Assembly: GCA_002378195.1 (NCBI GenBank) | Contig: DFRJ01000003.1 | Location: 32,879-96,878 of the forward strand | Length of the DNA: 64,000 bases | Direction: 5' to 3' | Source: Patescibacteria group bacterium UBA3466 | GTDB taxonomy: Bacteria; Patescibacteriota; Minisyncoccia; Phycocordibacterales; UBA918 | Shown: piece after piece, positions 28,571-50,093 of the stretch | How the letters are laid out: the number at the start of each line of letters is the position of its first letter | How positions within the stretch are numbered: the first letter of the stretch is position 1 | Translations under genes and position numbers: made by a program | Notes under the pieces: generated by a model | What the model was told of the DNA's origin: nothing | Database searches by the model: none | Seen by the model: only the letters and a program-made list of their open reading frames with translations

Positions 28571-28641
28571 TACCCGATCGTCTAATGGTAGGACACTTGG
28601 TTTTGGTCCAAGTAATCGGGGTTCGAGTCCCTGTCGGGTAG
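28571..28641 (+). tRNA. tRNA-Gln (anticodon TTG)
   Basis: Manual fold. tacccga acceptor, D-arm gtct/ggac, anticodon arm cttgg-ttTTGgt-ccaag, T-arm cgggg-ttcgagt-ccctg, 3' acceptor tcgggta, G73. Confidence 0.85.
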
Positions 28642-28795
28642 CCTGCAAGAAAACACCCTTTTGGGTGTTTTCTGTTTGAGCAGGCTACCCGACAAGAAAT
28701 AATCTGGGGGATTATTTCGTGGGACTCGAAAAGCGGTTTGAGATATTTTGGAGCTAGCGAACAAAATATCCAAACGCTGCACAGAATCTGTAAGA
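28642..28795 (+). repeat. repeat R1, copy a: long hairpin that pairs the tRNA-Gln 3' end, plus a conserved core of about 80 nt
   Basis: tagcctgcaagaaaacaccc tttt gggtgttttctgtttgagcaggctacccgac. About 85% identical to 49152-49285. Confidence 0.5.
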
Positions 28796-28814
28796 TTCGA
28801 GTCCCTGTCGGGTA
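28796..28814 (+). repeat. direct copy of tRNA-Gln 3' end (ttcgagtccctgtcgggta)
   Basis: 19/19 nt identical to 28622-28640. Confidence 0.55.
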
Positions 28815-29002
28815 AACAAGCACTTGGACCCAGGTTTATTTTTTCTTGTGCGAGAACATTTATTCAGTGATCGACAAGTTTTGACTTATATACAAATTAT
28901 TCACAGTTTATGCACAAAAAATTATTGTTGTAGTGTGTTCACATAAAAGCTAATGTTAAAGGGTCTTTTACGCTAGAAAGTTTATACAACTAAAAGTCCA
29001 TC

Positions 29003-36208: not shown

Positions 36209-36509
36209 AACAAAAATAATAGAAAAATACAAAGATGTTCATCTCGGATACTATGATTATAAAGATGATAAGTATCGAATTGAGGATTTCTTAAATGAAG
36301 ATTTTCTTGTGGAATGGATTATAGGTATCGCAGATAAATATGATCAAGGTGTTACTCATCAAGGTCTAGACTTTATCAATGAATACTATGGTATTAAAAA
36401 TATTATTGATAAAGTGCTTGAGAAAAGTCCCCAATTCCCATTCGACGGTGGCGATCCTTACAAATTTCTTGAAGGTCAGAGAGAGCGGAGCTATTCCGCA
36501 AAGGACTAA
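36186..36509 (+). CDS. putative cognate immunity protein (overlaps toxin stop)
   Basis: ATG overlaps the last codons of the toxin gene. Small acidic protein. Position follows the toxin-then-immunity rule of RHS loci. No motif. Confidence 0.4.
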   Translation: MKRMEEDKTKIIEKYKDVHLGYYDYKDDKYRIEDFLNEDFLVEWIIGIADKYDQGVTHQGLDFINEYYGIKNIIDKVLEKSPQFPFDGGDPYKFLEGQRERSYSAKD

Positions 36510-36673
36510 TTGACCTTTCTCAAGAGAGTCAAATCCAAAACTATTAAGGTAGCTTACGTTCAATAAATTCATCGCTACCTTTTGTCAAAACCGACAGATA
36601 GAACGACTGATTGTTTGCTGTCTGGGTAATGATATAGTTTGAAAAATAACAATTAATATGAAATAGTTCCTGT

Positions 36674-38632
36674 ATGAAGGCAGTGCCAACCTCAATCAAG
36701 TTTCTGGTTTTGTATATGGTCATAGTGATTGGCTATATTTTATACGAGATTACTTTAGGAGATAATCAAGCAAAAGAAGCATTCGATCTTTATAACCTCG
36801 GTCTTGTTTATGATGGAATAAACTTTATTGCGGTTGCAGGGGCAGTTTTGTTACTTGTTTTGCTTTGGTTTAAAGAAAAGAATTTTTATCCCGTGGCAAT
36901 GGGTTGGTTGACTATAGATTTCTTCAGCACACTTTTGTTTTGCGTACTCTATTTCATCAATCTAGATGTCTTAATTAGTGCTGAAAATGATCCTGCTCTA
37001 CAGGAATATATGAGTTCTACAGCTGGACTGGTTGCGTGGGGGGTTCAGATATCGCTTTATTTGGCACTTATTCTATATTTCATTTACGCTGTCCATAAAC
37101 ATAAGCTTGTGCTTACTGGAAATGGTCCGATTAGCATAGAAGAAAAAAAGGAGTACAAAAGTTTTGGAATCAAGGTCCTTATAGCTTGCTTAGTGATTGC
37201 TGCTGCAGGTGCAGGAGTGTACATGGGAGTAGCTGATAAGAAAGCTATGAATGAGAGTTTTTATATGAAAGAAAACTCTAATGTTCGCGCTGGAGGAAGC
37301 TTTGCCAGCACTTCTGAAAGTCTTACTGATGAACAACTTAGGGAGTTGTTGGAGAATCCGGAAAGAAATACTCTGGTTATTAGTCTTAATAGTATTGGAT
37401 CAACGATTGTACTTGTTGAAGAAGATTGGATGGGAGACGACCTGTATGTACTTGACCAAGAGCTTACTGTTTATGAGCAAACAAAAAAGGAACAATACCA
37501 GTCATTGAAGGATGAAGTCGAGGGTATTTTTGCTGATGCGGACTTGAAACAAGAAACAATCTCGAACTATCAGTATGACCTGGAGTATTTTAATGATCAG
37601 ATTGTTTTAACAGATTCATTGAACAATGCAAAAAAACAGATAGATGCTGTTGCGGAAAGCTTGGGTGTTCCAAGTGATGATGAGTCTCAGGGAGGTAGCA
37701 ATTGGTGGGAAACAGATGAAGAGTACGTAAATAATCTCAAACTAGCCACCAGTATCACTGAGGATATAAATGCAATATATAAGACCAGTACCAAACTTCG
37801 TGAAGCAATGATCGAGAAGTTAAAAGCTGATGATGTTGAGGGTTCAATTGCTGTCTATAATGATATTCAGGTGATTGATTACATCCTAAACTGGCACAAT
37901 ACAGCATACGAAACACTTGCTAAATCACTGTATGCCACAGAACAAAAGTACGCTGAGCAGGGATTGGCTTCTGAAGATGCACCATCCCACAAACCAACTA
38001 GTCTTATTGATATAAAAGATCAGGTACAGGATATTGTTCAAGATGTTGCAGACATTAGTGAGAACTTGGATGCAGACACTCTTTACTTCAGAGCTCAGGA
38101 CTTTGAAGATGCCGAAGATATAGAAAATGCTGTTAAGTATTATCGTTTAGCTGCTGAAAAATATCCTGAAGACAATGGAGAAAGATATGAAGCACTGGCA
38201 CAGGCTGAGTGGGAGCTTGAGAACCCAGACGGAATCTTGAAATATCTAGAGCAAGGGTATGTAGTAGATCCAACAAACGATTATTTACTCCATACATACG
38301 GACATTTCTTAAACGGTATCTCATTGAGTTCTGCCTATCGTCAAGATCTAGACTTGGCCTTGAAAATCAATCTAGAGTTAGTGAGCTTACTTCCTGATGA
38401 CGAAAACTTAGATAACCTTGCTTACACTTACTTATTGCGTGGTGAGGAAGATAAGTTTGAGGAAACAGTTGGAAGAATGAGCGTTTACGATGAGTCAGAA
38501 CATTATGGTTGGTACGCTAAAATCTATCACCGCCGTGGAAATCAGGAGATGGCAGAAAAGTATAAAAACTTAGCGATTGGTGTTGATGACTGGAATGATG
38601 AGCGTGAACAGTATCTAAGCCTCAGCTTCTAG
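36674..38632 (+). CDS. hypothetical membrane protein with C-terminal TPR-like region
   Basis: About 190-aa multi-TM N-terminus. C-terminal helical repeats (YYRLAAEKYPED...). Confidence 0.3.
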   Translation: MKAVPTSIKFLVLYMVIVIGYILYEITLGDNQAKEAFDLYNLGLVYDGINFIAVAGAVLLLVLLWFKEKNFYPVAMGWLTIDFFSTLLFCVLYFINLDVLISAENDPALQEYMSSTAGLVAWGVQISLYLALILYFIYAVHKHKLVLTGNGPISIEEKKEYKSFGIKVLIACLVIAAAGAGVYMGVADKKAMNESFYMKENSNVRAGGSFASTSESLTDEQLRELLENPERNTLVISLNSIGSTIVLVEEDWMGDDLYVLDQELTVYEQTKKEQYQSLKDEVEGIFADADLKQETISNYQYDLEYFNDQIVLTDSLNNAKKQIDAVAESLGVPSDDESQGGSNWWETDEEYVNNLKLATSITEDINAIYKTSTKLREAMIEKLKADDVEGSIAVYNDIQVIDYILNWHNTAYETLAKSLYATEQKYAEQGLASEDAPSHKPTSLIDIKDQVQDIVQDVADISENLDADTLYFRAQDFEDAEDIENAVKYYRLAAEKYPEDNGERYEALAQAEWELENPDGILKYLEQGYVVDPTNDYLLHTYGHFLNGISLSSAYRQDLDLALKINLELVSLLPDDENLDNLAYTYLLRGEEDKFEETVGRMSVYDESEHYGWYAKIYHRRGNQEMAEKYKNLAIGVDDWNDEREQYLSLSF

Positions 38633-39064
38633 TGGTAAGACAACCTCCTTTTGTCTTTTCCTTTCATTTTCTACTTGTAGAGCTCTATAAAGATATATAG
38701 ACACAAGTCCCCAAAAGATGAGGCTCGTAATGACACTACCCGTAAAAGCCATTATGTACCACTTATCGAATGTGTAGAGGGTCAATAAACCTACGATGCC
38801 CCACCGGTGTCCAAAGTACGTGAATACCATGAAGGGAACGTACATAAGTATTGAAACAAGCATGTCAGCGAGAGTAAAAAGTTCAGGGTAGAACTGAGTT
38901 AATCCGAAGCTCCACGCGAACATAGCAACTAGTATCAATAGAGGTATGCCACGAGCTGATTCGTATACTTTCAAAGTCTTATAATCAGCAACTTGCCTCT
39001 CAAGCTCTTCCTTAGTTAAAGACAGGGAGCTGAATAATTTTTTCTTGTTTGCAGTTTCTTCCAC
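38615..39064 (-). CDS. hypothetical membrane protein
   Basis: Three or four TM helices. No motif. Confidence 0.3.
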   Translation of the reverse strand: MEETANKKKLFSSLSLTKEELERQVADYKTLKVYESARGIPLLILVAMFAWSFGLTQFYPELFTLADMLVSILMYVPFMVFTYFGHRWGIVGLLTLYTFDKWYIMAFTGSVITSLIFWGLVSIYLYRALQVENERKRQKEVVLPLEAEA

Positions 39065-39067
39065 AAG

Positions 39068-40813
39068 CTATTTATAGCATGGTTCTTCTGATTTTTCTGA
39101 GAAGGTGTCAAATTCTTTCCTATTAACCGGAATTGATCCACCGATTGGTCCTTTTGGCTTCTTAAGTCGTTCAGAATAAGGAATTTTATCTTTGATACAA
39201 TACTCGATGTTAGTTGTCTCGATTTTTTTGTTTACTTCAACTTCTACTGGTACCGAGCCGTGGTATTCAACTTTATCATTGTAGTAAACAACCTTGTTTG
39301 TAAAATCAAGGAGAAATTTACGTCTAGTGTCAAAGTCATAGCATTTCCTGTATCTAGCTTTAGCCTCAGTACAGTACTTCTTCACTGCGATATCAACGAT
39401 ATCTTTTTTGTGCAAGAGTGGAATCTTTTTCAGCAACTCTTGTTTCTCCAGTTTTAACTTATTAATCGTATTATCAAGTTCTAGACTCTTATCTACGTAT
39501 TCATTTCTATCAATTTCGCTGGAAGTATAAATATCAATCAGTCGCTTTTTTGTTAGCTCAATCTTCCTCATCTTCTCTTCGTTTGACTTTATTTTCTTGT
39601 TGAACCGTATCTCATTTGCTTGTACTCGACGCTTGAAATGGCTCATGCACGCCTTCAGTTTCCTGTCACTAAACAGATGACTCTCAATCATAGTGAAGAC
39701 TTTCTCCTCAAGAACCGATCCCTTAATAGCAATATTGTCACAAGGTTTCATTTTCGGCCTGTTCTTCTCAGCATGCATATATTTGCTGAATTTATAATTG
39801 CATTTATATGAAAGCTTGTAGTACGCCTTGGGTTTTTTCATACGTTTATCTACGTAGTAACGCCGATTAGCAAAGATGCTCCCGTCACAGCACCCGCATC
39901 GCACTAGGGAAGAAAGCATTTGTGGGACTCTCGGGTTCCTATATCTTTTTCGATTATGTTCTAGTTTCGTTTGAGCCTTATTGAATAGTTCTTTTGAGAT
40001 AATTGATGGTACTGGTACTCCAATCCATTCACTACGATCTCGCTTAACTACCTTGGTTTTATGTTCTGAACTAGTTAAACTTTTCTTTTTCATTGTGTTG
40101 TAGTAACGGACTCCGGTATACATTTCTTGGTTTAGCATGGCTTTGATAAGCGATACTCTCCACAGTCCTCGACCTTGTTTTGTTGGGGCGTTCATTTCTT
40201 CTAATTGCTGACACATTTTGTTCATACCAATTTCACCATTGGTGTAGGTTTCAAATATCCAGCGGACTATCTTTGCTTCTGTTTCATTTATAGTATATGA
40301 AGGAGGTGACGTTTGGGTTCTGCGGTGATGATCATAACCATACACCTGGCATCCATTTCCAGAGAGAGTACCTTGGCTAATACGAAGCTGTTTCGACCGC
40401 ATCACTCGTTCTACAATCTTTGCTCTTTCTAGTTCCGCGACGGCCCCTAGGACAGTAAGAGTAAATTTGTTTTCAGGATTATGAACGTAGTCTTTCCCGT
40501 TGATGATTATCTGTTTTTTGTATTTAAGAATCTCAGCAATAATAATCGTTTGATAGGTCACTTCTCGGGCTATACGATCTGTATTTAGAAAATAGATGGT
40601 ATCAAATTGCTTCGTTTTTAGATCCTCACGAAGCTTATTCATGGCAGGCCTGTCTAACTCAGCTCCACTATAACCATCATCAATGTATTCCTTGACTAAG
40701 ATGTGGCCAGCTTCAGCTATTTGTCTTTTTAATGCTTCAATCTGGCTTTCAATGGTTTTATCCCTTCTTTGCAAGGACGAACTCACCCTTGCATATAATG
40801 TTGCTCGTTTCAT
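39068..40813 (-). CDS. large serine recombinase
   Basis: N-terminal resolvase catalytic domain (LYARVSSSLQ with the Ser nucleophile), recombinase domain, CGCCDG...C zinc ribbon. 581 aa. Confidence 0.85.
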   Translation of the reverse strand: MKRATLYARVSSSLQRRDKTIESQIEALKRQIAEAGHILVKEYIDDGYSGAELDRPAMNKLREDLKTKQFDTIYFLNTDRIAREVTYQTIIIAEILKYKKQIIINGKDYVHNPENKFTLTVLGAVAELERAKIVERVMRSKQLRISQGTLSGNGCQVYGYDHHRRTQTSPPSYTINETEAKIVRWIFETYTNGEIGMNKMCQQLEEMNAPTKQGRGLWRVSLIKAMLNQEMYTGVRYYNTMKKKSLTSSEHKTKVVKRDRSEWIGVPVPSIISKELFNKAQTKLEHNRKRYRNPRVPQMLSSLVRCGCCDGSIFANRRYYVDKRMKKPKAYYKLSYKCNYKFSKYMHAEKNRPKMKPCDNIAIKGSVLEEKVFTMIESHLFSDRKLKACMSHFKRRVQANEIRFNKKIKSNEEKMRKIELTKKRLIDIYTSSEIDRNEYVDKSLELDNTINKLKLEKQELLKKIPLLHKKDIVDIAVKKYCTEAKARYRKCYDFDTRRKFLLDFTNKVVYYNDKVEYHGSVPVEVEVNKKIETTNIEYCIKDKIPYSERLKKPKGPIGGSIPVNRKEFDTFSEKSEEPCYK

Positions 40814-41007
40814 ACATACTTTTAATTTATTAATGCCAGACCAGTATCTGGTGCATAGCTATGCAGAGCAACCGATACGTCACATACTAGGCACAAAGTC
40901 TTAGCAAGATTGAGTGTCAGCGATAGAATTTTATTTGATAGCAGTATTTTGCTATTATGTTCATTACAACTTGACCTAAACCGAGCAACTCCGTTGGCGG
41001 CATGGTC

Positions 41008-41165
41008 CAATACAAAACCGCTACAGTATAGAAGACTCTCCGTCAGAGTCACTGTAGCGGTCGTGTCTGGGAAACCAGATATGGGTCCTCCGGGATCGCG
41101 ATGGCGGGGAGCCTTCTGTCTGAGAGACTCTAGGTTCACCACACTAAATTAAATCCGCTACAGTG
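41008..41165. promoter_or_regulatory. cluster of CCGCTACAGT motifs (two direct, one inverted) in the divergent region upstream of the recombinase
   Basis: 41008-41017, 41041-41050 (inverted) and 41155-41164. The first two flank the palindrome gactctccgtcagagtc. Confidence 0.35.
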
Positions 41166-41169
41166 CATT

Positions 41170-41904
41170 ATGAATACAACAGTAGCTCCCGACTGGGAGC
41201 ATTTTAAGATATTGATACAAGAGCGTATCAAGAACTTTTGGGGTTACGGCAACCTCAACGGCCCATACTGGTTCATCGGTATGGAAGAAGGTTATAACGA
41301 AACAAACGAAATATTACTAGACCGCTTCACCGCTACTGCTCATCAGCAAGTCTGTGATATCTATGATGATCTAAAAGTAGACCCTGGTCATGTTTATTGG
41401 TTTGAAGATGGAGCACCAATACAGCCGACGTATCGTCGGCTGATTGAAATGATGCTCTACTCTCAAAGCAAGGTTCATCCGGATAAGGAAGAAATTAGAC
41501 AGTTTCAAATTGAAAAACTGGGTCGAAAGCAAAGTAACCATGCGCTACTTGAACTCATGCCACTGCCATCAAAGTCTATTGCAGAAAAAGATTGGCTCTA
41601 CGCTGATTCAGGTGTCGAGGGTTTATCCTCTCGAAAAGACTATTTAGAAACATACAAAAGTGAGCGAATTGAGGCATTACGAAACCTAATTCATAAACAT
41701 AAACCTAAGTACGTGATCTGTTACTCACTGTCATACCAAGAAGATTGGCAACAACTAACGGATAAACCGTTTATAGAAGTGAACCCACGTCGGCTCTATC
41801 TAGCGAGAGATACTGACACCACATTCGCTATTACTCCACATTCAGTTGCTCAAGGTCTCTCCAATAATGATTGGAAAATGATTATCGAAGAGCTATTTCT
41901 TTGA
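41170..41904 (+). CDS. hypothetical protein
   Basis: 244-aa ORF with no recognised motif. Confidence 0.3.
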   Translation: MNTTVAPDWEHFKILIQERIKNFWGYGNLNGPYWFIGMEEGYNETNEILLDRFTATAHQQVCDIYDDLKVDPGHVYWFEDGAPIQPTYRRLIEMMLYSQSKVHPDKEEIRQFQIEKLGRKQSNHALLELMPLPSKSIAEKDWLYADSGVEGLSSRKDYLETYKSERIEALRNLIHKHKPKYVICYSLSYQEDWQQLTDKPFIEVNPRRLYLARDTDTTFAITPHSVAQGLSNNDWKMIIEELFL

Positions 41905-42282
41905 GCCCTTCTTGTTCTTTGACACTTTAGCGGTGTGATTCTTGGGAGCGACGATTTCAATCTTCGTTACTGGAGAGAACGTCGGTTGTTCCACCTTTGG
42001 TCTCGGCTTGATGTACGTCTTCTTGTTGTTATCAAGCCAGTACTGAATCGCCCGCAGATTGCCGTTGTTGATATGCGAAATCAGCTTGCTTTCAGCAAGG
42101 TCGTTCACAGACTGAGTGCCGCACGATAGTGCTGTATCCATTCTCGCTTTGAAGTCGGGATCCTCGTTACACCATCGATAGACAGTGTTACGAGCAATCC
42201 CAACTCGTTCACAAGCGAGTGATACGTTAGGTACCTTTTCGAGTTGTTCGAGGAACGGTAGTTCCTTTCGCTTTCGTTTCAT
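41893..42282 (-). CDS. HTH-domain protein (phage small-terminase / transposase-HTH-like)
   Basis: VSLACERVGIARNTVYRWC helix-turn-helix. Small basic C-terminal tail. Confidence 0.4.
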   Translation of the reverse strand: MKRKRKELPFLEQLEKVPNVSLACERVGIARNTVYRWCNEDPDFKARMDTALSCGTQSVNDLAESKLISHINNGNLRAIQYWLDNNKKTYIKPRPKVEQPTFSPVTKIEIVAPKNHTAKVSKNKKGSKK

Positions 42283-43549
42283 GGCGGATTACCTTTGCCT
42301 TGATGCCTGTTTCAGCTTCAAAGCGTTTAATGGTGAGGTCGCAGAAGATTGGTTCAATCTCCACCGCGAACACTCGGCGCCCTAGCTTCTCGGCGGCTAT
42401 CAGGTTACTTCCTGAGCCGTTGAAGCTATCGAGGATGATATCGTCGGTGTAGGTACAGCGACGAATCGCTTTCTCGTAGAGCAAAACTGGCTTCATCGTG
42501 CTGTGTTCGTACTCTTTGGATGAGAGACGAGCTTCAGGCCAGATGGTGAAATGGTCGTGTACTTGGTCAATGAGTGCGTTACCAGTGGTCATATCGTTAT
42601 TCATGATTTCGTTCAGCGAGTTCACCCCTTTGACCAATTTCGGCTTACCACGAGTGCCGTAGGTACACGGTTCGTAGCATTTGTTGAATGCTACCCCTGG
42701 GGTAGGGTTCTGTCCGTTCTTCAGCCACAAGCAGACACGCTTGTTGGTGATACCTAGCTCTCGGTAGAGCGTCTGGATGAGCCAGATGTATGTTTCGTCG
42801 CTCCAGTAGAAGACGTGGGCGTCTGGCTTGGTGACTGCGAGCGCTGCTTCCATGCTGGACTTGAGGAACTGCTTGTATTCAGCGTCTGACTTGCTGTCGT
42901 CTACCGTTCCTCCGTACGCCTGTTTGCCCCCGATACCTTTGTTGTAGTCAACGGCGATGTTATAGATCGGGTCAGACATAATCATGTCCGCTCGTTCGTC
43001 GCCAAACAGGCGTTCAAGCGTCTCAACCTTGGTGGAATCACCGCAGATAAGGCGGTGCTTGCCAAGCTCAATGATGTCACCTGGTTGTGTCGTCGCTTTC
43101 TTAATCTTCTTGAGCTCCTTCTCGGGTTCAAAGTCCTCTCCGACTTTTCCGTTCCAGAGATCGTCCACTATCTTCTGGTCGAATCCTAAATCTAGGAGTA
43201 TCTCAGTACTGAAATTCTTCAGTATCGGGAAGTCCCACTCACCGTCGATAGCGTTACTGGCGATAAGGTAGCGTTTGGCTTCCTCCTCGGTCAGCTTGCG
43301 GTTTGGCACACGGACGTCGATCTTCTCTTCACCGTGCCCGGTATCCTTCAGCACCTTAATACGTTGGTGTCCGGCGAGAATCGTGCCGTCGATGTCGATG
43401 GCGGGAATTTCTACCAGACTGAAGTCGCTGAGGCTCTGCTTCAAGCGCTCTGCCTGTTCCTTGCTAATCTTGCGTGGCGTATCTTTGTGGGGAGTGAGGC
43501 TGTTTACCACTCGCTCCTCGGTGTGCCACTGTAATTGTGTTGTTTGCAT
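42227..43549 (-). CDS. ParB-like nuclease domain fused to an N6/N4 DNA methyltransferase
   Basis: N-terminal ParB/Srx-like region. SDPIYN (DPPY-type motif IV) and DSFNGSGSN (motif I). Start chosen at MQTTQ. Confidence 0.75.
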   Translation of the reverse strand: MQTTQLQWHTEERVVNSLTPHKDTPRKISKEQAERLKQSLSDFSLVEIPAIDIDGTILAGHQRIKVLKDTGHGEEKIDVRVPNRKLTEEEAKRYLIASNAIDGEWDFPILKNFSTEILLDLGFDQKIVDDLWNGKVGEDFEPEKELKKIKKATTQPGDIIELGKHRLICGDSTKVETLERLFGDERADMIMSDPIYNIAVDYNKGIGGKQAYGGTVDDSKSDAEYKQFLKSSMEAALAVTKPDAHVFYWSDETYIWLIQTLYRELGITNKRVCLWLKNGQNPTPGVAFNKCYEPCTYGTRGKPKLVKGVNSLNEIMNNDMTTGNALIDQVHDHFTIWPEARLSSKEYEHSTMKPVLLYEKAIRRCTYTDDIILDSFNGSGSNLIAAEKLGRRVFAVEIEPIFCDLTIKRFEAETGIKAKVIRHETKAKGTTVPRTTRKGT

Positions 43550-43584
43550 ACTATTGTATTGCTTATTTACTAAACAAACGAAAA

Positions 43585-43622
43585 GGGCCCCGCACACCGA
43601 AAATATCGGTTGTGCGGGGCCC
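43585..43622. terminator. GC-rich hairpin between the methylase gene and the upstream minus-strand ORF
   Basis: gggccccgcacaccga aaat atcggttgtgcggggccc. Confidence 0.5.
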
Positions 43623-43832
43623 TTATTTAAAAGGTTACCCAGCGTGGATAGTCACTTTTATTCGTTTATACATCTATTATAACAGGGTGGTTTTTCGTGC
43701 AAATATCCTTATTTTAAGCCATATCCGTTTTTCAAAATCGTTTTAAAATGAGTTGAGAATCGCTTATTCACGGCATTTAAATCACCAAAAAGAAAAAGCA
43801 CGCTCGTCCGACGGTGCTTTTTCAGGGTAGTT

Positions 43833-44114
43833 TTAAAGGTTGTTTTGGATCCATGAACCGACATTGTTTGACAAATTCCACCACGCTGCACTATCGTCAG
43901 TTACGTTAATGACAAGGAGCTTATCGTTCCGGTCGATATACGCACCGACGTCATCTCGAAATTGTTCGGCAGAACGAGCGGTTTTGATTAAGTAGACAGA
44001 GCGTACAGGCTTCGCCCAACTTGAATGCGATTCAAGAAAACCGTGTAGACGTGAGTAGTCCTTTCCGGGAGCCATCAAGTCATATGTCACCAGTAGGGTA
44101 TTCATATTACACAT
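43833..44114 (-). CDS. hypothetical small protein, divergent from the repressor-like gene
   Basis: ORF (start MCNMNTLLVTYDL). Loose resemblance to the Cas2/VapD-type beta-alpha pattern only. No firm motif. Confidence 0.3.
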   Translation of the reverse strand: MCNMNTLLVTYDLMAPGKDYSRLHGFLESHSSWAKPVRSVYLIKTARSAEQFRDDVGAYIDRNDKLLVINVTDDSAAWWNLSNNVGSWIQNNL

Positions 44115-44244
44115 TTTCTTATGCTTGTAATGGAGAACTATTGCTGACCCTATGATACTCCCGTTTGCTAGGGTGTCAAGAGTGTAAAATAACTTGACGA
44201 TATAGGTTACTTTTTTCCTCAAAATATGATACAATAAGGGGGTT

Positions 44245-44886
44245 ATGCATCAACTACAAGAACAATTATTACTTTTGGCGAAGGGTCAGGACTTGGGTCC
44301 TTTAAGCCTCCGTCAGATTGCCAAGCTTATCGGTGCAGACGGTAAGCCACAGATTGTTAAACATCACCTGCTACAGCTCGATAAGCAGGGTCTTTTGCAG
44401 GTGAATCTTGATGAGAATGTAATAAAGCCGATTAAGCGTGGCTTCAATATGCCACAGGCAAAGCGACTATTCTTCTCGCTCCCGATTGTTGGTATGGCAA
44501 ACTGTGGTCCGCAGACTGTATTTGCCGATGAACGTGTTGAGGGGTACCTCAAAGTTTCAGCAAAGATGTTGCCTCGACGAAAACAAGATCTCTATATCTT
44601 GGTCGCTGATGGTCCGTCTATGAACAAAGCAGAGGTTCGTGAGGGAGTGACGATCGAAGATGGTGATTACGTGGTGGTAGACAGTAAAGACGTTACGCCG
44701 AAGGATGGTGAGATTGTCGTAGCTGTGATTGATGGTCTAGCGACCATCAAGCGTTTCCGTAAGGACAATAAGAACAATCGTATTGTTCTCGAAGCTGACT
44801 CTACAGAGAACTACCATCCAATCTACATCTCTGAAGATGATGAGTTCCAGATAAGCGGAAAAGTAGTTGATGTGATTAAAAAATAA
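44245..44886 (+). CDS. LexA/CI-like repressor (winged helix plus S24 peptidase domain)
   Basis: N-terminal wHTH. C-terminal S24 Ser-Lys dyad context GPSMNKA ... ATIKRF. Upstream TTGACG/-10 promoter-like sequence. Confidence 0.8.
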   Translation: MHQLQEQLLLLAKGQDLGPLSLRQIAKLIGADGKPQIVKHHLLQLDKQGLLQVNLDENVIKPIKRGFNMPQAKRLFFSLPIVGMANCGPQTVFADERVEGYLKVSAKMLPRRKQDLYILVADGPSMNKAEVREGVTIEDGDYVVVDSKDVTPKDGEIVVAVIDGLATIKRFRKDNKNNRIVLEADSTENYHPIYISEDDEFQISGKVVDVIKK

Positions 44887-44897
44887 GTAATAAAATC

Positions 44898-45269
44898 ATG
44901 AAAAGAGTATTTATCAGTTTTGCAATGGAAGACAAGACGTATCGAGACTTTTTAGTAGGTCAGTCAAAGAACGAGAACTCTCCATTCACGTTTGTTGATA
45001 TGTCTGTAAAAGAACCTTGGAAGTCAGAATGGAAGACAAAATGTCGTACTAAGATTAAAGGTTGTGATGGTGTAATTGGTTTGATTAGTAAAAATACACC
45101 CGCAGCTGACGGAGAAATTTTTGAGCTCAAGTGTGCATACGAAGAAGATGTGCCAGTAATGCTTATGTACATAAATGATGACCGTCCAGTGTTGCCTGCA
45201 TTTCTAAAAAATAAGCGAATTAATGTGTGGAGTTGGGCAAATATAAAAGCATTTATTTCAAAACTCTAA
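44898..45269 (+). CDS. TIR-like domain protein (MTH538/DUF1863, ThsB-like)
   Basis: MKRVFISFAMEDK N-terminus, about 120 aa, and a conserved Trp/acidic pattern typical of the bacterial TIR-like fold. Confidence 0.5.
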   Translation: MKRVFISFAMEDKTYRDFLVGQSKNENSPFTFVDMSVKEPWKSEWKTKCRTKIKGCDGVIGLISKNTPAADGEIFELKCAYEEDVPVMLMYINDDRPVLPAFLKNKRINVWSWANIKAFISKL

Positions 45270-45271
45270 TT

Positions 45272-46216
45272 ATGAAAAAAGCACTTGCAGTAGGAATTGA
45301 TGAATATCCGACAGCACCTCTGAATGGTTGCATAAATGATGCTTCTGCGTTAGCAAATACTCTCGAAAAGAATGGTGATGGGTCTCCGAATTTTGATGTC
45401 CGTCTCTTAACCAATGTCTCTACCAAATCTGAGTTTATGACAGCCATTACAGAGCTGTTTGAGGGAGATTCTGATATTGCGCTACTTTATTTTTCTGGGC
45501 ATGGGCACTTAGATTCAAAGGGTGGTTTTTTGGTGACACCCGATCATCAAAAGAATGACGAAGGGGTGTCAATGAACACAATTCTTGGGCTGGCTAACAA
45601 ATCTAAAGCAAAAGATAAGATAATCATCTTGGACTGCTGTCATTCTGGGCAATTTGGTTCTCCAGATGTCGCTGGTGAACAAACAGTGACACAAATTGCT
45701 GAAGGGGTAGTTGTTTTGACAGCCAGCAAGAATGACGAGGCGTCTGTCGAAGTTAACGGCCACGGAATCTTTACCAGTTTACTTATTGATGCCTTGCAAG
45801 GTGGTGCCGCTGATTTACGTGGAGAAATCACTCCGGGAAGTGTATACGCATATATCGATCAAGCATTAGGACCTTGGGATCAGCGGCCAGTATTTAAAAC
45901 AAATGTCTCTCGCTTTACTTCGTTAAGAAAAATTAACCCCCAAGTTCCTGCGGAAAAACTGAGAATGATTGTTGAATATTTTGAAAAGCCAGAGTCGGAA
46001 CATAAACTAGATCCAAGTTATGAATTCGATAATAAGGATATTGCTGATCCAGATAAGGTAGAGATTATGAAGGATTTACAAAAATTTGTGAGCGTAGGTC
46101 TAGTTGTTCCTGTTGGCGAAGAGCATATGTATTATGCTGCTCAAAATTCTAAATCATGTAGACTGACTGCACTTGGATATCACTACTGGCGTTTGGTTAA
46201 AGAGAAGAAGCTTTGA
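45272..46216 (+). CDS. caspase-like (peptidase C14) protein with extra C-terminal domain
   Basis: His-Cys dyad contexts YFSGHGH and ILDCCHSGQ in the canonical order and spacing. Start codon overlaps the upstream stop. Confidence 0.75.
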   Translation: MKKALAVGIDEYPTAPLNGCINDASALANTLEKNGDGSPNFDVRLLTNVSTKSEFMTAITELFEGDSDIALLYFSGHGHLDSKGGFLVTPDHQKNDEGVSMNTILGLANKSKAKDKIIILDCCHSGQFGSPDVAGEQTVTQIAEGVVVLTASKNDEASVEVNGHGIFTSLLIDALQGGAADLRGEITPGSVYAYIDQALGPWDQRPVFKTNVSRFTSLRKINPQVPAEKLRMIVEYFEKPESEHKLDPSYEFDNKDIADPDKVEIMKDLQKFVSVGLVVPVGEEHMYYAAQNSKSCRLTALGYHYWRLVKEKKL

Positions 46217-46219
46217 TTT

Positions 46220-46681
46220 ATGAAAACAGTCAAGACAATTTCAGGTGAGATACTTTTGTATTTTTATTTATTACAGAGACAAGATGTGGGACAGCTAAAA
46301 GATGCTCGTGTGAGCTTTGGTTTTTGGCAGTCACGTCAAGATAATAATGTGTCAGGCGTGCAACTTGATAGGCGATCAGAATCAATTTTTGGAGTCGATG
46401 ACTTTAAAGAATATACAGACAATGATTTGTACAATGCAATCGTATACCTAAGTGATTCAGGCTTGATTGATTTTAAGGATTCCCCAGATAATACTGGTTC
46501 AAATTTATTTAATTTCAAAGTTTCGGCATACGGTATTGATATAGTGGAAGGTATCGAGAGAGGTGAAGAAGAAAAGAAAGTTTTTAATATGACTTTCAAT
46601 TTCAATATTAACAATGATGTAACTGTCGAAAGTTTACTTAAAGCAGAATTCGGAGCTTTGTTTAAAGCTTCAGTGCTTTAA
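46220..46681 (+). CDS. hypothetical protein (operonic with the caspase-like gene)
   Basis: 3-nt gap to the upstream gene. No motif. Confidence 0.35.
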   Translation: MKTVKTISGEILLYFYLLQRQDVGQLKDARVSFGFWQSRQDNNVSGVQLDRRSESIFGVDDFKEYTDNDLYNAIVYLSDSGLIDFKDSPDNTGSNLFNFKVSAYGIDIVEGIERGEEEKKVFNMTFNFNINNDVTVESLLKAEFGALFKASVL

Positions 46682-46691
46682 ACTCTGTGGT

Positions 46692-47267
46692 ATGTCTGAA
46701 AACAACGCACACCTCGGGGAAACGTATGAGCAAAGACTGAAGCGGTTTAACGAAAACCACCCAATTGAAGTTATTGAGACGGTCATAAACTCAATGGCGA
46801 ATCATTTTGTAAATGAACTAAGAGCTGTTTTTGATAATCCACCGAATCGTCAGACCACATTGATGTTTCTGGGCACTCACTCAATTGCGCTTACTATCTC
46901 ACATGGAATCTTCGGTGAGGATGGACTGAAGGGTTACAGGTTATTTCTTCAGAATTTTATCGATGGTAAAACCCCCGATACTCAATTCTCTGAAATAGCG
47001 GCGGAGATACATGAGTGGCGTAACGTACTTGCACATAGATGGATAAATGTAGCAGGACATAGTATTAGCTATAACTTTGATATGTCCGAAGGATGGGTTC
47101 GTGATGGAGAATTCTTGATATTGAACCCGCAAGTATATTTGAATCAATATCTGAAAGCTTTTGGTGCAGGTGGAAGAATTTATCGCTACGACCAAATCCT
47201 TACTACTGAGGAGGAATATGAAGCAGCAAAACAAAGGTTCATTTCAAAGTACGAAGACAAAGCGTAA
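46692..47267 (+). CDS. hypothetical protein with HEPN-like R-x4-H motif
   Basis: EWRNVLAHRW contains R-N-x-x-A-H, as in Abi-type HEPN domains. Confidence 0.35.
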   Translation: MSENNAHLGETYEQRLKRFNENHPIEVIETVINSMANHFVNELRAVFDNPPNRQTTLMFLGTHSIALTISHGIFGEDGLKGYRLFLQNFIDGKTPDTQFSEIAAEIHEWRNVLAHRWINVAGHSISYNFDMSEGWVRDGEFLILNPQVYLNQYLKAFGAGGRIYRYDQILTTEEEYEAAKQRFISKYEDKA

Positions 47268-47505
47268 AAACTGTCACTTTTGTCACTTTTTGAGCTAAAA
47301 TAGCTATAGAACAGCTGTCCGTTTCTTGAAAAAAGCACTACGAATTTGTAAAACAATTGACCATTAAGAATTGTGGTGGGTGAGGTGTTTTTTAATGATC
47401 TGCTTCCTGATACTTGTAGTGGTCAAATAGGACAAGCCACAGCTAGTACTTTCTATAATATAGCCACGAGTACAAAATCAACCGGCTGGTGTCGTTCATG
47501 CTGTT

Positions 47506-48174
47506 ATGGGTGCAAGGTATTACGCCGGCGATACTGGACGCTTCACTTCGCAGGATCCGGTAGCATTAGCTCTAGGAGATTGGAAAACAGTTCAGGACAA
47601 GACTGGAGACAGGCTAGGCTTTTATCTTCAAAATCCCCAAACACACAACTCCTACAGTTACACAGCAAATAATCCGCTCAAGTATGTAGATAAGAATGGT
47701 GAATATATTGAGTCTGCAATTGATATAGGGTTCATTGCCTACGACCTCTACAAGATTGGAGAGGCTGTGGTAACAGGTGGTGATGTAAAAGCTGAGATTG
47801 GATACCTAGGACTTGATCTGGCTGGTTTAGCTGCACCGGGTGGTACAGGGTTTGGACTGGCGGCACGAATGGCTCTTAAGAATGGAGATAATTTCTATCA
47901 AGCTGGAAAGATTATAGAAAATATCTCCAGCTCAGATTTGAAGTCGCTCAAGTCGCTAGATAAGCAAATTCAAAATCACCAGAAAAAGCTAAATGATTAC
48001 GTCAAAAATCCAGATAAGTTTGACAACGATGGACGACTTAAAGCTGCCGGAAATAACACTGAATTACGAAATCAAATAATTAATGGTAGAGTTGATAAAC
48101 TAAATCGAGAGATTAAAACCTTTGAGGGTAATGCCGAGAAGATTATTAAAAAGTATGACAAAAAAAATGACTAA
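47506..48174 (+). CDS. orphan RHS C-terminal toxin cassette
   Basis: First about 65 aa (MGARYYAGDTGRFTSQDP...NNPLKYVDKNGE) are near-identical to residues of the giant RHS protein at 35480-35690. The tail diverges. Confidence 0.8.
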   Translation: MGARYYAGDTGRFTSQDPVALALGDWKTVQDKTGDRLGFYLQNPQTHNSYSYTANNPLKYVDKNGEYIESAIDIGFIAYDLYKIGEAVVTGGDVKAEIGYLGLDLAGLAAPGGTGFGLAARMALKNGDNFYQAGKIIENISSSDLKSLKSLDKQIQNHQKKLNDYVKNPDKFDNDGRLKAAGNNTELRNQIINGRVDKLNREIKTFEGNAEKIIKKYDKKND

Positions 48175-48478
48175 AACACTCACAATCAAAGGAGATGAAC
48201 TCAAGAAAGTCCTCGACAGACTTGTGATGGATGGTGATACATTTGAACTTGAAGTCGATTCTTTTTGGGAGATTAACGATGATGAAGTATACAACATTGA
48301 AGAATCTCCAAAGAATTTCAGTATTGGTCAAGTGACAGAAGAATGGGAAATGCTGAATAAGAGCTTAGAGGATGAAGACTACTATCCACTCAATACTGAC
48401 CTGAGAAATCTAGGGAGGATTTTGAAGGCGATTGGGGACACTGTCGATCAGTCAAAGACTAACGAGCAAAGAGATTAA
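48167..48478 (+). CDS. putative immunity protein for the orphan toxin
   Basis: ATG overlaps the toxin stop. Small acidic protein. Confidence 0.4.
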   Translation: MTKTLTIKGDELKKVLDRLVMDGDTFELEVDSFWEINDDEVYNIEESPKNFSIGQVTEEWEMLNKSLEDEDYYPLNTDLRNLGRILKAIGDTVDQSKTNEQRD

Positions 48479-48487
48479 TCTCTCGCC

Positions 48488-48573
48488 TCAGCTCTTAATC
48501 ATTGAGTCATATTCTTTTCTACCAATTTGGACCGATCCACCGATCGGTCCTTTTGGTCTTTTGATTCTGTCTG
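48488..48573 (-). pseudogene. 3' fragment of a second serine recombinase gene
   Basis: Minus-strand translation RIKRPKGPIGGSVQIGRKEYDSMIKS* parallels the C-terminus RLKKPKGPIGGSIPVNRKEFDTFSE of the recombinase at 39068-40813. The upstream body is absent. Confidence 0.55.
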
Positions 48574-48597
48574 CGTAGCGAATTAGAAAAAGCGGGA

Positions 48598-48615
48598 CGA
48601 GTCCCTGTCGGGTAG
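48598..48615 (+). repeat. direct copy of tRNA-Gln 3' end (cgagtccctgtcgggtag), right border of island
   Basis: 18/18 nt identical to 28624-28641. Confidence 0.55.
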
Positions 48616-48706
48616 CAAAGTATTGACATAAAGTACATAATATGTTATGATAAAAAAGTTAGTGAATTCTCACTGACGACGATGACGATGATGATAGGGG
48701 AAAAAG

Positions 48707-49139: not shown

Positions 49140-49285
49140 TAACGTCGTTTCAGACTCGTAGCCTGCTCAAACAGAAAACACCCAATAGGGTGTTTTCTGT
49201 TTGAGCAGGCTACTCGATAAAAAATAATCTGGAGGATTATTCCACGGGGATCGAAAAGCGGTTTGATATTTTAGTTTTACTACTT
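49140..49285 (+). repeat. repeat R1, copy b: perfect 26-bp hairpin plus conserved core
   Basis: gtagcctgctcaaacagaaaacaccc aata gggtgttttctgtttgagcaggctac. Core aataatctggRggattatt...tcgaaaagcggtttga is shared with 28642-28790. Confidence 0.5.
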
Positions 49286-49352: not shown

Positions 49353-50093
49353 TTAGTAAGGGGCGATACCTATCAAAGCAAGACCCAAATCATTTGTTTG
49401 GTTAGATGTTGACCAGCCCAGTGTATGATTTCCTGCTGTTGAAGCTTCCTTATAACCAAATCCGTAAATACCGTAGCTATAAGTACCGTCTTGAATTGAT
49501 GTATGGTCAGTACCTGTGACTGTAGGATTATTTCCTGTGGTAGCTCCTAATACGTCCAAGATCAAGACATTGTCCTGAGTCGTCGTAATAGTCGTATCAA
49601 TACTATTGTCTGAAGCGCTGTCATATCTTGCTAGACTATCTATCGGATTGTCTAAATCAGCTCCTGTAATAGTGATAGCGGTAGCAATCACAGGTCTTCC
49701 AGCTGCGTATGCTGCCGGAAGAATATCAAGAGACACGGTTTGTGTGCCTGTAGGTGCATCTGCAAGGTAATAAATGTACGCTAACCCTTCGCCGGTTGTA
49801 GATGCAAGTGTCATAGTCTCGCCGCCGTATGTGACGCTTTCAACACTGCCCAACGCATCATATCTGTGTGAAACGAGTACAACTGCGAGTAAGTTTTCTC
49901 CAGAACTATCACCTGTATGAGAAAATGAGAAATCGTTTGTATATATGTTGCTGGTTGTTGTATTGTCGATTTCAGGCATTGCTGATGCCGATGCTTGATT
50001 AGGTAGAAGTGCAGATGCTACTAATACTCCCGATAGTAATGAGAAGAAAATACACGCTCTCTTAATGTAAAACTTTAAAAATAAATGACTCAT
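49353..50093 (-). CDS. secreted Thr/Ser-rich protein
   Basis: N-terminal signal peptide. Thr/Gly-rich body. No catalytic motif. Confidence 0.35.
   Translation of the reverse strand: MSHLFLKFYIKRACIFFSLLSGVLVASALLPNQASASAMPEIDNTTTSNIYTNDFSFSHTGDSSGENLLAVVLVSHRYDALGSVESVTYGGETMTLASTTGEGLAYIYYLADAPTGTQTVSLDILPAAYAAGRPVIATAITITGADLDNPIDSLARYDSASDNSIDTTITTTQDNVLILDVLGATTGNNPTVTGTDHTSIQDGTYSYGIYGFGYKEASTAGNHTLGWSTSNQTNDLGLALIGIAPY

Follow-up and report, generated by a model that had tools for sequence, protein, structure and literature searches.

The question raised by this locus is whether a short coding sequence that begins with a near copy of part of a giant RHS gene, and lies downstream of that gene, is a stored toxin tip, and whether such a tip could be moved onto the main RHS body. 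An earlier note on this DNA had read it as an orphan toxin-tip cassette in the classic arrangement for swapping tips by homologous recombination. [quoted passage not shown] Swapping of the tip onto the main RHS body is plausible. The features on which this reading depends are collected in Table 1.

Table 1. Coordinates of the features of the tRNA-Gln island within the window
Feature	Coordinates	Strand	Basis or remark
tRNA-Gln, left bound of island	28571-28643	+	
First direct copy of tRNA-Gln 3' end	28796-28817	+	20/22 nt; 186 nt upstream of RHS start codon
Main RHS gene, 2401 aa	29003-36208	+	ORF list, Pfam, TIGR03696
Homology copy 1	35482-35685	+	last 68 codons of RHS core in main gene, MGARYY...NNPLKYVDKNGEFI
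Main C-terminal tip (hydrophobic linker and toxin domain)	35681-36208	+	alignments; unrelated to orphan tip
Putative immunity gene of main tip, 104-107 aa	36195-36509	+	overlaps RHS stop codon; function inferred from position
Intervening module	36638-41883		652-aa TPR membrane protein, 149-aa membrane protein, serine recombinase, LOOT RNA, 244-aa protein
Large serine recombinase	39068-40813	-	Pfam Resolvase and Recombinase
LOOT RNA	40973-41097		Rfam
Intervening defence-like block	41884-47267		Pfam, PADLOC
Homology copy 2	47505-47708	+	orphan 5' end, 90.2% identical to copy 1
Orphan rhs-CT ORF, 222 aa	47506-48174	+	core end, linker, toxin domain
Orphan rhsI-like immunity gene, 103 aa	48167-48478	+	overlaps toxin stop codon
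Intrinsic-terminator-like hairpin ending cassette	48529-48550	+	
Second direct copy of tRNA-Gln 3' end	48596-48617	+	19/22 nt; 118 nt past orphan immunity gene

The main RHS gene and the repeat of its core end

The main protein consists of an N-terminal signal/TM segment, SpvB and FG-GAP domains, an RHS/YD shell, an Rhs-associated core and its own C-terminal tip, with Pfam matches to SpvB, FG-GAP_3, RHS_repeat and TEN_YD-shell. Positions 1-75 of the 76 of TIGR03696 are matched within its last 349 aa (63 bits, E 2e-17). With repeats and a core domain ahead of a variable C-terminus, the predicted product has the make-up of an RHS/YD-repeat polymorphic toxin. PAAR is absent among its Pfam matches, so that it does not qualify as a T6SS-delivered Rhs effector, and no type VI secretion genes were found among the genes examined between 26.7 and 50 kb of the window. 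The N-terminus resembles a signal/TM segment and the neighbours are pyrG and the tRNA-Gln. The C-terminal tip has no Pfam match, and the small ORF that follows it is called in public assemblies as 104 or 107 aa.

The second copy of the tRNA-Gln 3' end is att-like and marks the right edge of an island of 19.8 kb in which the orphan lies together with the main RHS gene. The GC content is about 0.39 in the 29-51 kb region versus 0.43-0.46 in the flanks.

The end of the main RHS core and the 5' end of the orphan constitute an ungapped direct repeat in which 184 of 204 nt are identical (90.2%, blastn E 5e-72; 88.7% when measured across 213 nt), with longest perfect runs of 34 and 27 nt. The earlier note had put the similarity at about 200 nt and 93% identity; its length and position agree with the measurement, and its identity was slightly high. 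Both copies encode, in frame, MGARYYAGDTGRFTSQDP...NNPLKYVDKNGE(Y/F)I, with 63 of 68 residues identical, and the columns P57, D62, G65 and E66 are invariant across the 15 homologues aligned. The 5' edge of the repeat is sharp. It lies one base ahead of the orphan ATG (47506), which encodes the Met of the YMGARYY motif, and core similarity to the main gene is absent upstream of 47505. The 3' edge lies two codons past the conserved ...DKNGE boundary (NNPLKYVDKNGE); from there on the main and orphan tips are unrelated in alignments, as expected from the claim that the sequence diverges into a different C-terminal domain. Besides these two, no core-end copies were found within the window by tblastn with the core-end peptide.

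The idea that the repeat results from chance, low complexity or misassembly deserves practically no credence. The E value and the in-frame coding of a conserved protein motif speak against the first two, in keeping with the assertion that the similarity is not low-complexity. In several metagenome assemblies made independently of one another (L018, L019 and L020), one contig spans both copies, which excludes misassembly as the source of the repeat. On the E value and this co-occurrence, that explanation was rejected.

Over the shared 68 codons, dS is 0.44 and dN is 0.039. The resulting dN/dS of 0.09 shows that the orphan core end evolved as coding sequence, and the dS argues against recent exchange or gene conversion between copy 1 and copy 2. 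The two are therefore old.

The orphan tip and its probable immunity gene

The orphan product has neither the N-terminal delivery region nor the RHS shell. It comprises a core end (aa 1-66), a pre-toxin linker (aa 67-125) and a toxin domain of about 75 aa (aa ~140-214, nt ~47923-48147). It matches positions 33-75 of 76 of TIGR03696 (37 bits, cut-off 32.5), so that of the Rhs-associated core only the 3' half remains. The 66 residues of the core end include the RYY..GRF..DP and P....D..GE motifs, which we take to be the counterparts of the RHS/Tc autoproteolytic release site. The linker of about 60 aa is shared with other RHS tips (P0001, P0002, P0003, P0005, P0006, P0009 and P0013).

The toxin domain belongs to a family of 612 cluster representatives and is C-terminal in all of them. 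The carriers include RHS proteins of 2497 and 3217 aa, RHS-core proteins, an eCIS_core protein, a subtilase and PT-HINT proteins, and the same-family domain stands at the C-terminus of the RHS proteins P0177, P0178, P0167, P0091 and P0058. The orphan keeps all invariant and near-invariant residues of the family, for which the consensus is ...EHxxKLxxYxxNPxxFDNxGxLxNA...RxxIIxGRIxHLxxEIxxF. Beyond coiled-coil noise, no Pfam or NCBIfam match was found for the orphan tip and 38-45 family members, and comparison of the toxin domain with the PDB gave neither a sequence match nor a significant fold match. The AlphaFold model of the toxin domain is a helical hairpin (pLDDT 86.9); the model of the whole 222-aa protein is poor (pLDDT 54), such that the usable model is that of the C-terminal domain only.

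The small overlapping ORF is present as the note had described it, with its ATG 5 nt ahead of the toxin TAA (48172-48174). Its product is about 35% identical (E ~1.5e-15) to ORFs directly 3' of same-family toxins in L033/L034 and L035/L036, two unrelated metagenomic lineages. Therefore, the ORF is most likely the cognate immunity gene of the orphan toxin.

The reading as an orphan toxin-tip cassette is thus borne out by the shared strand, the downstream position, the 3' half of the core, the end of the nucleotide homology at the core/CT boundary, the unrelated C-terminal domain that occurs on full-length RHS proteins elsewhere, and the overlapping small ORF. Counted against the module are the 11.3-kb gap to the main gene, the short and 10% diverged homology, the failure to find recombinants in the collections examined, and the position of the ORF ATG at the start of the homology. 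All but the last of these points also qualify the description as a classic arrangement for recombination, for which the features of the module hold, but adjacency does not, and the homology is shorter and more diverged than in Salmonella.

The position of the ATG also bears on the proposal that the 222-aa protein has a translation start of its own at 47506 and acts in the producing cell, as one half of an internal toxin-antitoxin-like pair. The exact coincidence of ATG and homology start would fit this proposal, as would the database homologues P0004, P0006, P0012 and P0017, which likewise begin at MGARYY, and there is a precedent in Salmonella, in which main and orphan Rhs-CTs are reported to act inside the producing cell (PMC7043789). 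A missing Shine-Dalgarno sequence is no obstacle, given that nearly all genes here are without one, which makes such an analysis of the orphan uninformative. However, full-length proteins conserve this Met as part of the RHS core motif, so that nothing special is needed to explain it at the edge. In two related loci, L009 (JAWKSP010000001, a Candidatus Paceibacterota MAG) and L051 (a Tara contig), the orphan homology reaches well upstream of this Met, and so the boundary is not conserved. Further, no sigma-70-like promoter was found in 47200-47505, although such a scan is weak evidence in this genome. Taken with these points, an internal pair is unlikely.

For the orphan rhs-CT/rhsI module, a mode of action can be proposed. 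The immunity gene would guard the cell against neighbours that deploy the same toxin. The tip itself would not be deliverable alone, because it is without a shell and without a signal peptide. RecA-type recombination over the 204-bp homology could fuse it to the main RHS body and so make it deliverable. A simple crossover would remove 12 kb, and with it the main tip, the immunity gene of that tip, and the recombinase and defence genes inserted there, so that prior duplication would probably be needed, as in Salmonella. In origin, the cassette is most likely a diverged 3' end of an RHS gene that was horizontally acquired or else lost its place to a newer tip, and later insertion of mobile and defence DNA probably split it from the main gene.

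The intervening DNA and the search for recombinants

The main gene and the orphan, both on the + strand, are separated by 11.3 kb that hold 13 unrelated genes. The defence-like block encodes an HTH protein, a ParB/N6_N4 methyltransferase, a Cas2-like protein, a LexA-like S24 peptidase, a TIR-like protein, a caspase, and two proteins of 153 and 191 aa without assigned function. Parts of the intervening module recur in other genomic contexts. In the contigs L016 and L017, homology to the window starts at 36638, adjoining a MOSC gene, and the 652-aa gene is present without an RHS tip alongside. The contig L022 is identical to the window up to 41883 and is then joined to a mur/dcw cluster. The junctions at 36.5, 41.9 and 47.4 kb were searched for att-like repeats, and none was found.

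The large serine recombinase between the two copies suggests another course of events, in which an element with its own copy of the core end, a new tip and an immunity gene integrated into the RHS 3' end at 35482/47505. The gene would thereby have been rebuilt with the new tip, and the old one, displaced downstream, would be the orphan. The razor-sharp 5' edge of the homology would agree with this, as would the recurrence of part of the intervening DNA elsewhere and the divergence of the copies, which is expected if they came from different donors. The breakpoints at 36638 and 41883, however, differ from 35482/47505, the recombinase is 3.4 kb away from one putative end and 6.7 kb from the other, and att-like repeats are missing from the junctions listed above. 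In addition, the same continuous arrangement is shared by about 20 contigs, and the 652-aa gene of L016 and L017 has no adjoining RHS tip. Tip replacement by such an element is, therefore, very unlikely.

Recombinants were sought by exact look-ups of the orphan, 652-aa, 118-aa and HTH proteins, by cluster listings and by a homologue search. Among the public contigs and proteins examined, no main body fused to the orphan tip was found, and so the population variants that had been suggested as a check did not appear. The contigs are 100% identical to the window and represent one essentially clonal population, which makes this search a weak test.

Several apparent variants were seen in the course of these comparisons. 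L014 carries 99 foreign nt at its contig end (3.6x coverage). P0004, from a contig of 1861 nt, is 100% identical over the first ~67 residues and then continues as sulfatase-like sequence. L015 and L019 each have a main gene that is broken within its Glu-rich linker. Some of these variants, among which L022 is also counted, look like assembly chimeras, and others are unexplained.

The same observations bear on whether the toxin fragment is still of use. It may instead be an unused relic, either a displaced RHS 3' end or an acquired fragment, with the immunity gene alone functional against the toxins of neighbours, and with the 204-bp similarity a mark of ancestry rather than a working recombination substrate. 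The dS between the copies, the shortness of the perfect runs (34 nt at most) and the lack of apparent homogenisation are consistent with a relic, as are the build-up of 11.3 kb of unrelated DNA between the genes, the failure to find recombinants in the public assemblies examined and the result of the promoter scan. Against it, the 222-codon ORF is intact and every conserved residue of the toxin family is kept, and the toxin and immunity genes retain the overlap and coupling of active loci. The reported minimum for RecA-dependent recombination in E. coli is roughly 25 nt, and the perfect runs of 27-34 nt are near to it. On balance, a relic is somewhat improbable, and the module, with a tip that could be open to recombination, is the preferred reading.

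Comparison with known systems

The arrangement itself is well known in bacteria, and what sets this case apart is the unusual host and the uncharacterised toxin type. Polymorphic-toxin loci keep and trade their weapons as orphan toxin/immunity cassettes, as is well established in Proteobacteria. The host of this locus looks like a marine Paceibacteria-type CPR bacterium, and the principle is thereby extended to an ultra-small organism, in which interbacterial or host-directed toxins are poorly studied. We tentatively propose that the orphan tip and its partner define a widespread, undescribed toxin/immunity pair (a helical hairpin of about 75 residues, on RHS, PT-HINT, eCIS-core and subtilase scaffolds), and that the main gene and the spare tip of the tRNA-Gln island were split by a serine-recombinase element, in which case such elements might also move or replace the RHS tips of CPR bacteria. 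The work flags a large unannotated toxin/immunity family that is open to direct testing, and indicates that an RHS locus can be split by mobile and defence DNA with both cassettes intact. The current understanding of RHS systems is unchanged.

The locus resembles WapA/WapI of Bacillus subtilis and its wall-associated Gram-positive and CPR kin, which have a large YD/RHS protein with a Sec-type N-terminus and no type VI secretion genes. In those loci, a C-terminal polymorphic toxin is followed by a small downstream immunity gene and then by more tip/immunity cassettes. The orphan immunity protein faintly resembles DUF2691 (E 0.018, below the cut-off). In contrast, the toxin domain is unrelated to the WapA tRNase, and the main protein has, in addition, SpvB and FG-GAP domains of the kind found in Tc toxins and teneurins.

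Orphan rhs-CT/rhsI modules have been defined, and their behaviour described, in Enterobacteriaceae, including STM0292 of Salmonella Typhimurium, the rhsC orphans of Dickeya dadantii and modules of Yersinia (PMC3150448, PMC3967940). As in those, a 3' fragment of the rhs core is joined to a distinct tip, a cognate immunity ORF follows, and the whole lies downstream of a full-length rhs in the same orientation; nucleotide homology to the main gene stops at the core/CT demarcation motif; and the orphan tip is also found on full-length Rhs proteins of other bacteria. The differences are the Paceibacteria-like CPR host, the lack of PAAR in the main protein and the demarcation motif, which is P....D..GE (PLKYVDKNGE) rather than PxxxxDPxGL. 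Homology extends over 204 bp at 90%, whereas the Salmonella pair that recombines experimentally shares 522 bp at 95% (PMC3967940). It begins here exactly at an in-frame ATG, 11.3 kb of recombinase and defence genes separate the orphan from the main gene, and no recombinants were observed. The orphan cdiA-CT/cdiI modules similarly store a tip and an immunity gene with a short conserved pre-toxin stretch in common with the main gene (PMC3150448), but the carrier there is CdiA with a VENN motif rather than an RHS shell, and CdiB/CdiA are absent here.

The main-plus-orphan layout recurs in two other Paceibacteria-type contigs, L009 and L051. In L009, the core 3' end is repeated three times downstream (374 nt at 89%, 151 nt at 99% and 134 nt at 79%), and in L051 once (127 nt at 97.6%). 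Between the 3' end of the main gene and these orphans there are 0.7-7 kb, in which no recombinase/defence block was seen. The orphans usually keep core sequence upstream of the Met, and carry other toxin domains (GIY-YIG-like by sequence reading, Ntox44 and others). Nevertheless, they share with the window a core end of one sequence family (46-81% amino-acid identity) and the same two linker types, which are swapped: the linker type of the window orphan is on the main gene of L009, and that of the window main gene is on an L009 orphan.

The orphan tip and its toxin domain

Part of the 2401-aa RHS gene is repeated, in direct orientation and without gaps, at the start of a 222-aa orphan ORF on the same strand, 11.3 kb further downstream. 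By blastn, 184 of the 204 nucleotides are identical (90.2%, E 5e-72); the earlier note gave a slightly high 93% over about 200 nt, and its description otherwise holds. It is in frame in each gene and encodes MGARYYAGDTGRFTSQDP...NNPLKYVDKNGE(F/Y)I, 63 of whose 68 residues are shared. Its 5' edge is abrupt, one base upstream of the orphan ATG, and its 3' edge falls two codons past the conserved ...DKNGE motif, beyond which the main and orphan sequences are unrelated, in agreement with the divergence into a different C-terminal domain that had been proposed. Both copies lie on one contig in several independent assemblies, and therefore the repeat is not a misassembly; chance or artefact is excluded as its origin. 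The window holds no third copy of the RHS core end. P0004, a database entry from a 1861-nt ENA contig, matches the orphan at 100% identity over its core end (residues 1 to ~67), goes on as sulfatase-like sequence, and is probably chimeric with its junction at the repeat end.

Residues 1-65 of the orphan match positions 33-75 of TIGR03696, the 76-position model of the RHS repeat-associated core (37 bits, cut-off 32.5). The main gene matches positions 1-75, so the first half of the core end is missing from the orphan. The half that it retains carries the motifs RYY..GRF..DP and P....D..GE, which correspond to the autoproteolytic release site in RHS/Tc proteins; in the second motif P, D, G and E are invariant across 15 aligned homologues. 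Residues 67-125 form a linker (YIESAIDIGFIAYDLYKIGEAVVTGGDVKAEIGYLGLDLAG...) common to seven other RHS tips, in which the toxin domains after the linker are unrelated.

A word-indexed search finds no relatives of the last ~100 residues, and Pfam, NCBIfam and PDB sequence searches with the C-terminal domain give no match. An exhaustive HMMER scan detects 612 cluster representatives at E<=1e-3, 68 of them at E<=1e-10, and in each of the 150 best hits listed the match is C-terminal. Besides full-length RHS proteins (2497 and 3217 aa), carriers of the domain include shorter proteins that have RHS repeats or an Rhs core domain, one eCIS_core protein, one subtilase and three PT-HINT proteins. In the family consensus, SIxSLEKQIxEHxxKLxxYxxNPDAFDNKGFLKNAPxxExRxxIIxGRIxHLExEIxxF, the invariant and near-invariant positions (H, K, L, Y, P, D, N, L, R, I, I, R, L, I) are all conserved in the orphan. 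A confident AlphaFold model (pLDDT 86.9), built from the family alignment, consists of two long helices forming a hairpin, for which Foldseek finds no significant neighbour in the PDB. The domain belongs to the genuine C-terminal modules of polymorphic toxins.

The probable immunity gene

The 103-aa ORF starts 5 nt before the toxin stop codon and overlaps it, an overlap that the earlier note had seen, and a terminator-like hairpin lies downstream. Same-family toxins are followed by a small ORF in two unrelated metagenomic lineages, where the carrier is a 2497-aa RHS protein (contigs L033 and L034) or a 206-aa protein from activated sludge (L035 and L036). These small ORFs are 35% identical to that of the window (pairwise E ~1.5e-15). 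Since toxin-partner linkage is conserved across lineages, which is standard comparative evidence, the 103-aa ORF is read as the cognate immunity gene. In L035 and L036 the match begins at residue 1 and the small ORF overlaps the toxin stop codon, which fixes the start codon of the immunity gene at 48167.

The best-supported reading of 47506-48478 is that established for orphan rhs-CT/rhsI modules, in which a toxin tip is kept in store together with its immunity gene (PMC3150448, PMC3967940); the orphan RHS toxin-tip module of the earlier note was real and correctly read. The immunity protein would protect from neighbours armed with the same toxin. The tip would not be delivered unless fused to an RHS body, because alone it has neither signal peptide nor shell. 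Internal expression as a toxin-antitoxin-like pair has a precedent (PMC7043789) and is unlikely here. Almost no Shine-Dalgarno sequence is recognisable upstream of 18 gene starts at 26.6-50.1 kb, so ribosome-binding-site arguments are not usable for judging expression in this genome.

The tRNA-Gln island and its host

Features of the island and its surroundings, in window positions
Feature	Position	Strand	Remark
tRNA-Gln	28571-28643		just upstream of RHS gene
100-nt repeat	28648-28747		after tRNA-Gln
tRNA-Gln 3'-end copy	28796-28817	direct	20/22 nt
Main RHS gene	29003-36208	+	2401 aa
Repeat, main copy	35482-35685	+
Main immunity gene (putative)	36195-36509
TPR membrane protein			652 aa
Membrane protein			149 aa
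Large serine recombinase	39068-40813	-
LOOT RNA (RF03000)	40973-41097	+	Rfam match, 55.3 bits, above gathering score
Protein			244 aa
HTH protein
ParB-type N6/N4 methyltransferase
Cas2-like protein
LexA-like S24 peptidase
TIR-like (ThsB-like) protein
Caspase (Peptidase_C14)
Two proteins without assigned function
Repeat, orphan copy	47505-47708	+
Orphan tip	47506-48174	+	222 aa
Orphan immunity gene	48167-48478		103 aa
Terminator-like hairpin	48529-48550
tRNA-Gln 3'-end copy	48596-48617	direct	19/22 nt; 118 nt past orphan immunity gene
100-nt repeat	49173-49272
Secreted protein	49353-50093	-	246 aa

Two direct copies of the tRNA-Gln 3' end are observed, with none expected by chance. With these fragments at both sides, the main gene and the orphan lie at the two ends of a 19.8-kb island with att-like bounds. 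The 100-nt repeats are 86% identical, with a long palindromic hairpin inside, and GC is ~0.39 at 29-51 kb against 0.43-0.46 in the flanks. The tRNA-Gln copies and 100-nt repeats bracket this low-GC 20-kb region in a pattern that resembles islands added in tandem at a tRNA-Gln hot spot. A relative with an 83% identical PyrG keeps the order prfB-ftsE-ftsX-pyrG-tRNA-Gln and has no RHS gene downstream. A history in which mobile and defence genes invaded an initially compact RHS element would fit. In some contigs (e.g., L006) the secreted-protein gene has a 624-nt tandem duplication (49360-49983) giving a 455-aa product, and several contigs terminate within this repeat.

The LOOT RNA sits in the divergent intergenic region between the recombinase gene and the 244-aa gene. 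A compact same-strand run at 43833-47267 encodes the S24 peptidase, the TIR-like protein, the caspase and two unannotated proteins, with the Cas2-like ORF and the methyltransferase upstream on the opposite strand; in this CPR genome they make up a candidate block for anti-phage defence. Parts of the DNA between the main gene and the orphan are also present in other surroundings. In contigs L016 and L017, from a lineage ~87% identical, homology to the window begins at 36638, beside a MOSC gene. Contig L022 (ERZ840367 NODE_7421, 51x coverage) is 100% identical to the window over 36318-41883, a segment reaching from the main immunity gene past the recombinase to the 244-aa gene, and then enters a murC-murG-ftsW-murD-mraY (mur/dcw) cluster absent from the window. 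Since some 20 further contigs run through 41883 without a break, L022 is either a rare variant or a chimera; its junction could come from rearrangement in a strain, from mobility mediated by the recombinase or from chimeric assembly. It is very improbable that the serine-recombinase element replaced the tip, given that none of the breakpoints seen coincides with an edge of the repeat.

Contigs with exact matches to the window, the longest of 155 kb, come from marine metagenomes, those of Tara Oceans among them. No other protein in the collection is more than 84% identical to the flanking CTP synthase, whose best named matches are in Candidatus Nomurabacteria, Kaiserbacteria and Paceibacteria. 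The host is therefore a marine, Paceibacteria-like bacterium of the Patescibacteria (CPR), and the GTDB representatives scanned do not include its species. In two contigs of one sample's assembly (L015 and L019), the main RHS gene is broken in its Glu-rich linker (33144-33304, residues ~1381-1456). One runs on into a TPR-containing C-terminus (1675-aa product) and the other begins at residue 1456 behind unrelated metabolic genes, which is either an RHS structural variant or an assembly break at low-complexity sequence.

Possible exchange between main and orphan tips

The 68 shared codons contain 21 nucleotide differences in 18 codons, of which 13 differ synonymously (dS 0.44, dN 0.039). The dN/dS of 0.09 indicates that the orphan core end evolved as translated sequence. 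The module may possibly be a relic in which the immunity gene alone still matters, a tentative alternative that is partly compatible with a stored tip. The longest perfect runs of the repeat are 34 and 27 nt, which together with the dS argues against any recent exchange that would have made the copies alike. Population variants with the orphan tip on the main body, which the earlier note suggested seeking, are not found in the assemblies and protein clusters examined, a weak negative in a population clonal at 100% identity.

Related loci occur in other contigs. In L009 (JAWKSP010000001, a Candidatus Paceibacterota MAG), a 2608-aa RHS gene is followed by three core-3'-region repeats (374 nt at 89%, 151 nt at 99% and 134 nt at 79%). 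On the Tara contig L051, the 3' end of an RHS gene is accompanied by an immunity-like ORF, by an orphan that has 127 nt in common with its main gene at 97.6%, and by an additional Ntox44 cassette. In both contigs the homology reaches upstream of the Met, so its start at the ATG in the window is not a conserved feature. The linker type of the window orphan is on the L009 main gene, and that of the window main gene on an L009 orphan; thus both tip kinds hold main and orphan positions in this bacterial group.

For a stored tip, fusion to the RHS body through homologous recombination over the 204 bp would be possible and probably rare. A simple crossover would remove 11 kb of other genes along with the main tip and its immunity gene, and duplication would be expected beforehand, as in Salmonella. 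The module is of a known kind, with modest added interest from its CPR host, unannotated toxin/immunity family and split, island-borne locus. The earlier note saw the classic arrangement for tip swapping, and the orphan module itself stands; unlike the textbook orphan rhs-CT/rhsI arrangement, however, the cassette does not adjoin the main gene but lies 11.3 kb away. Its repeat, 204 bp at 90.2%, compares with 522 bp shared at 95% in the Salmonella pair for which recombination is seen in the laboratory (PMC3967940).
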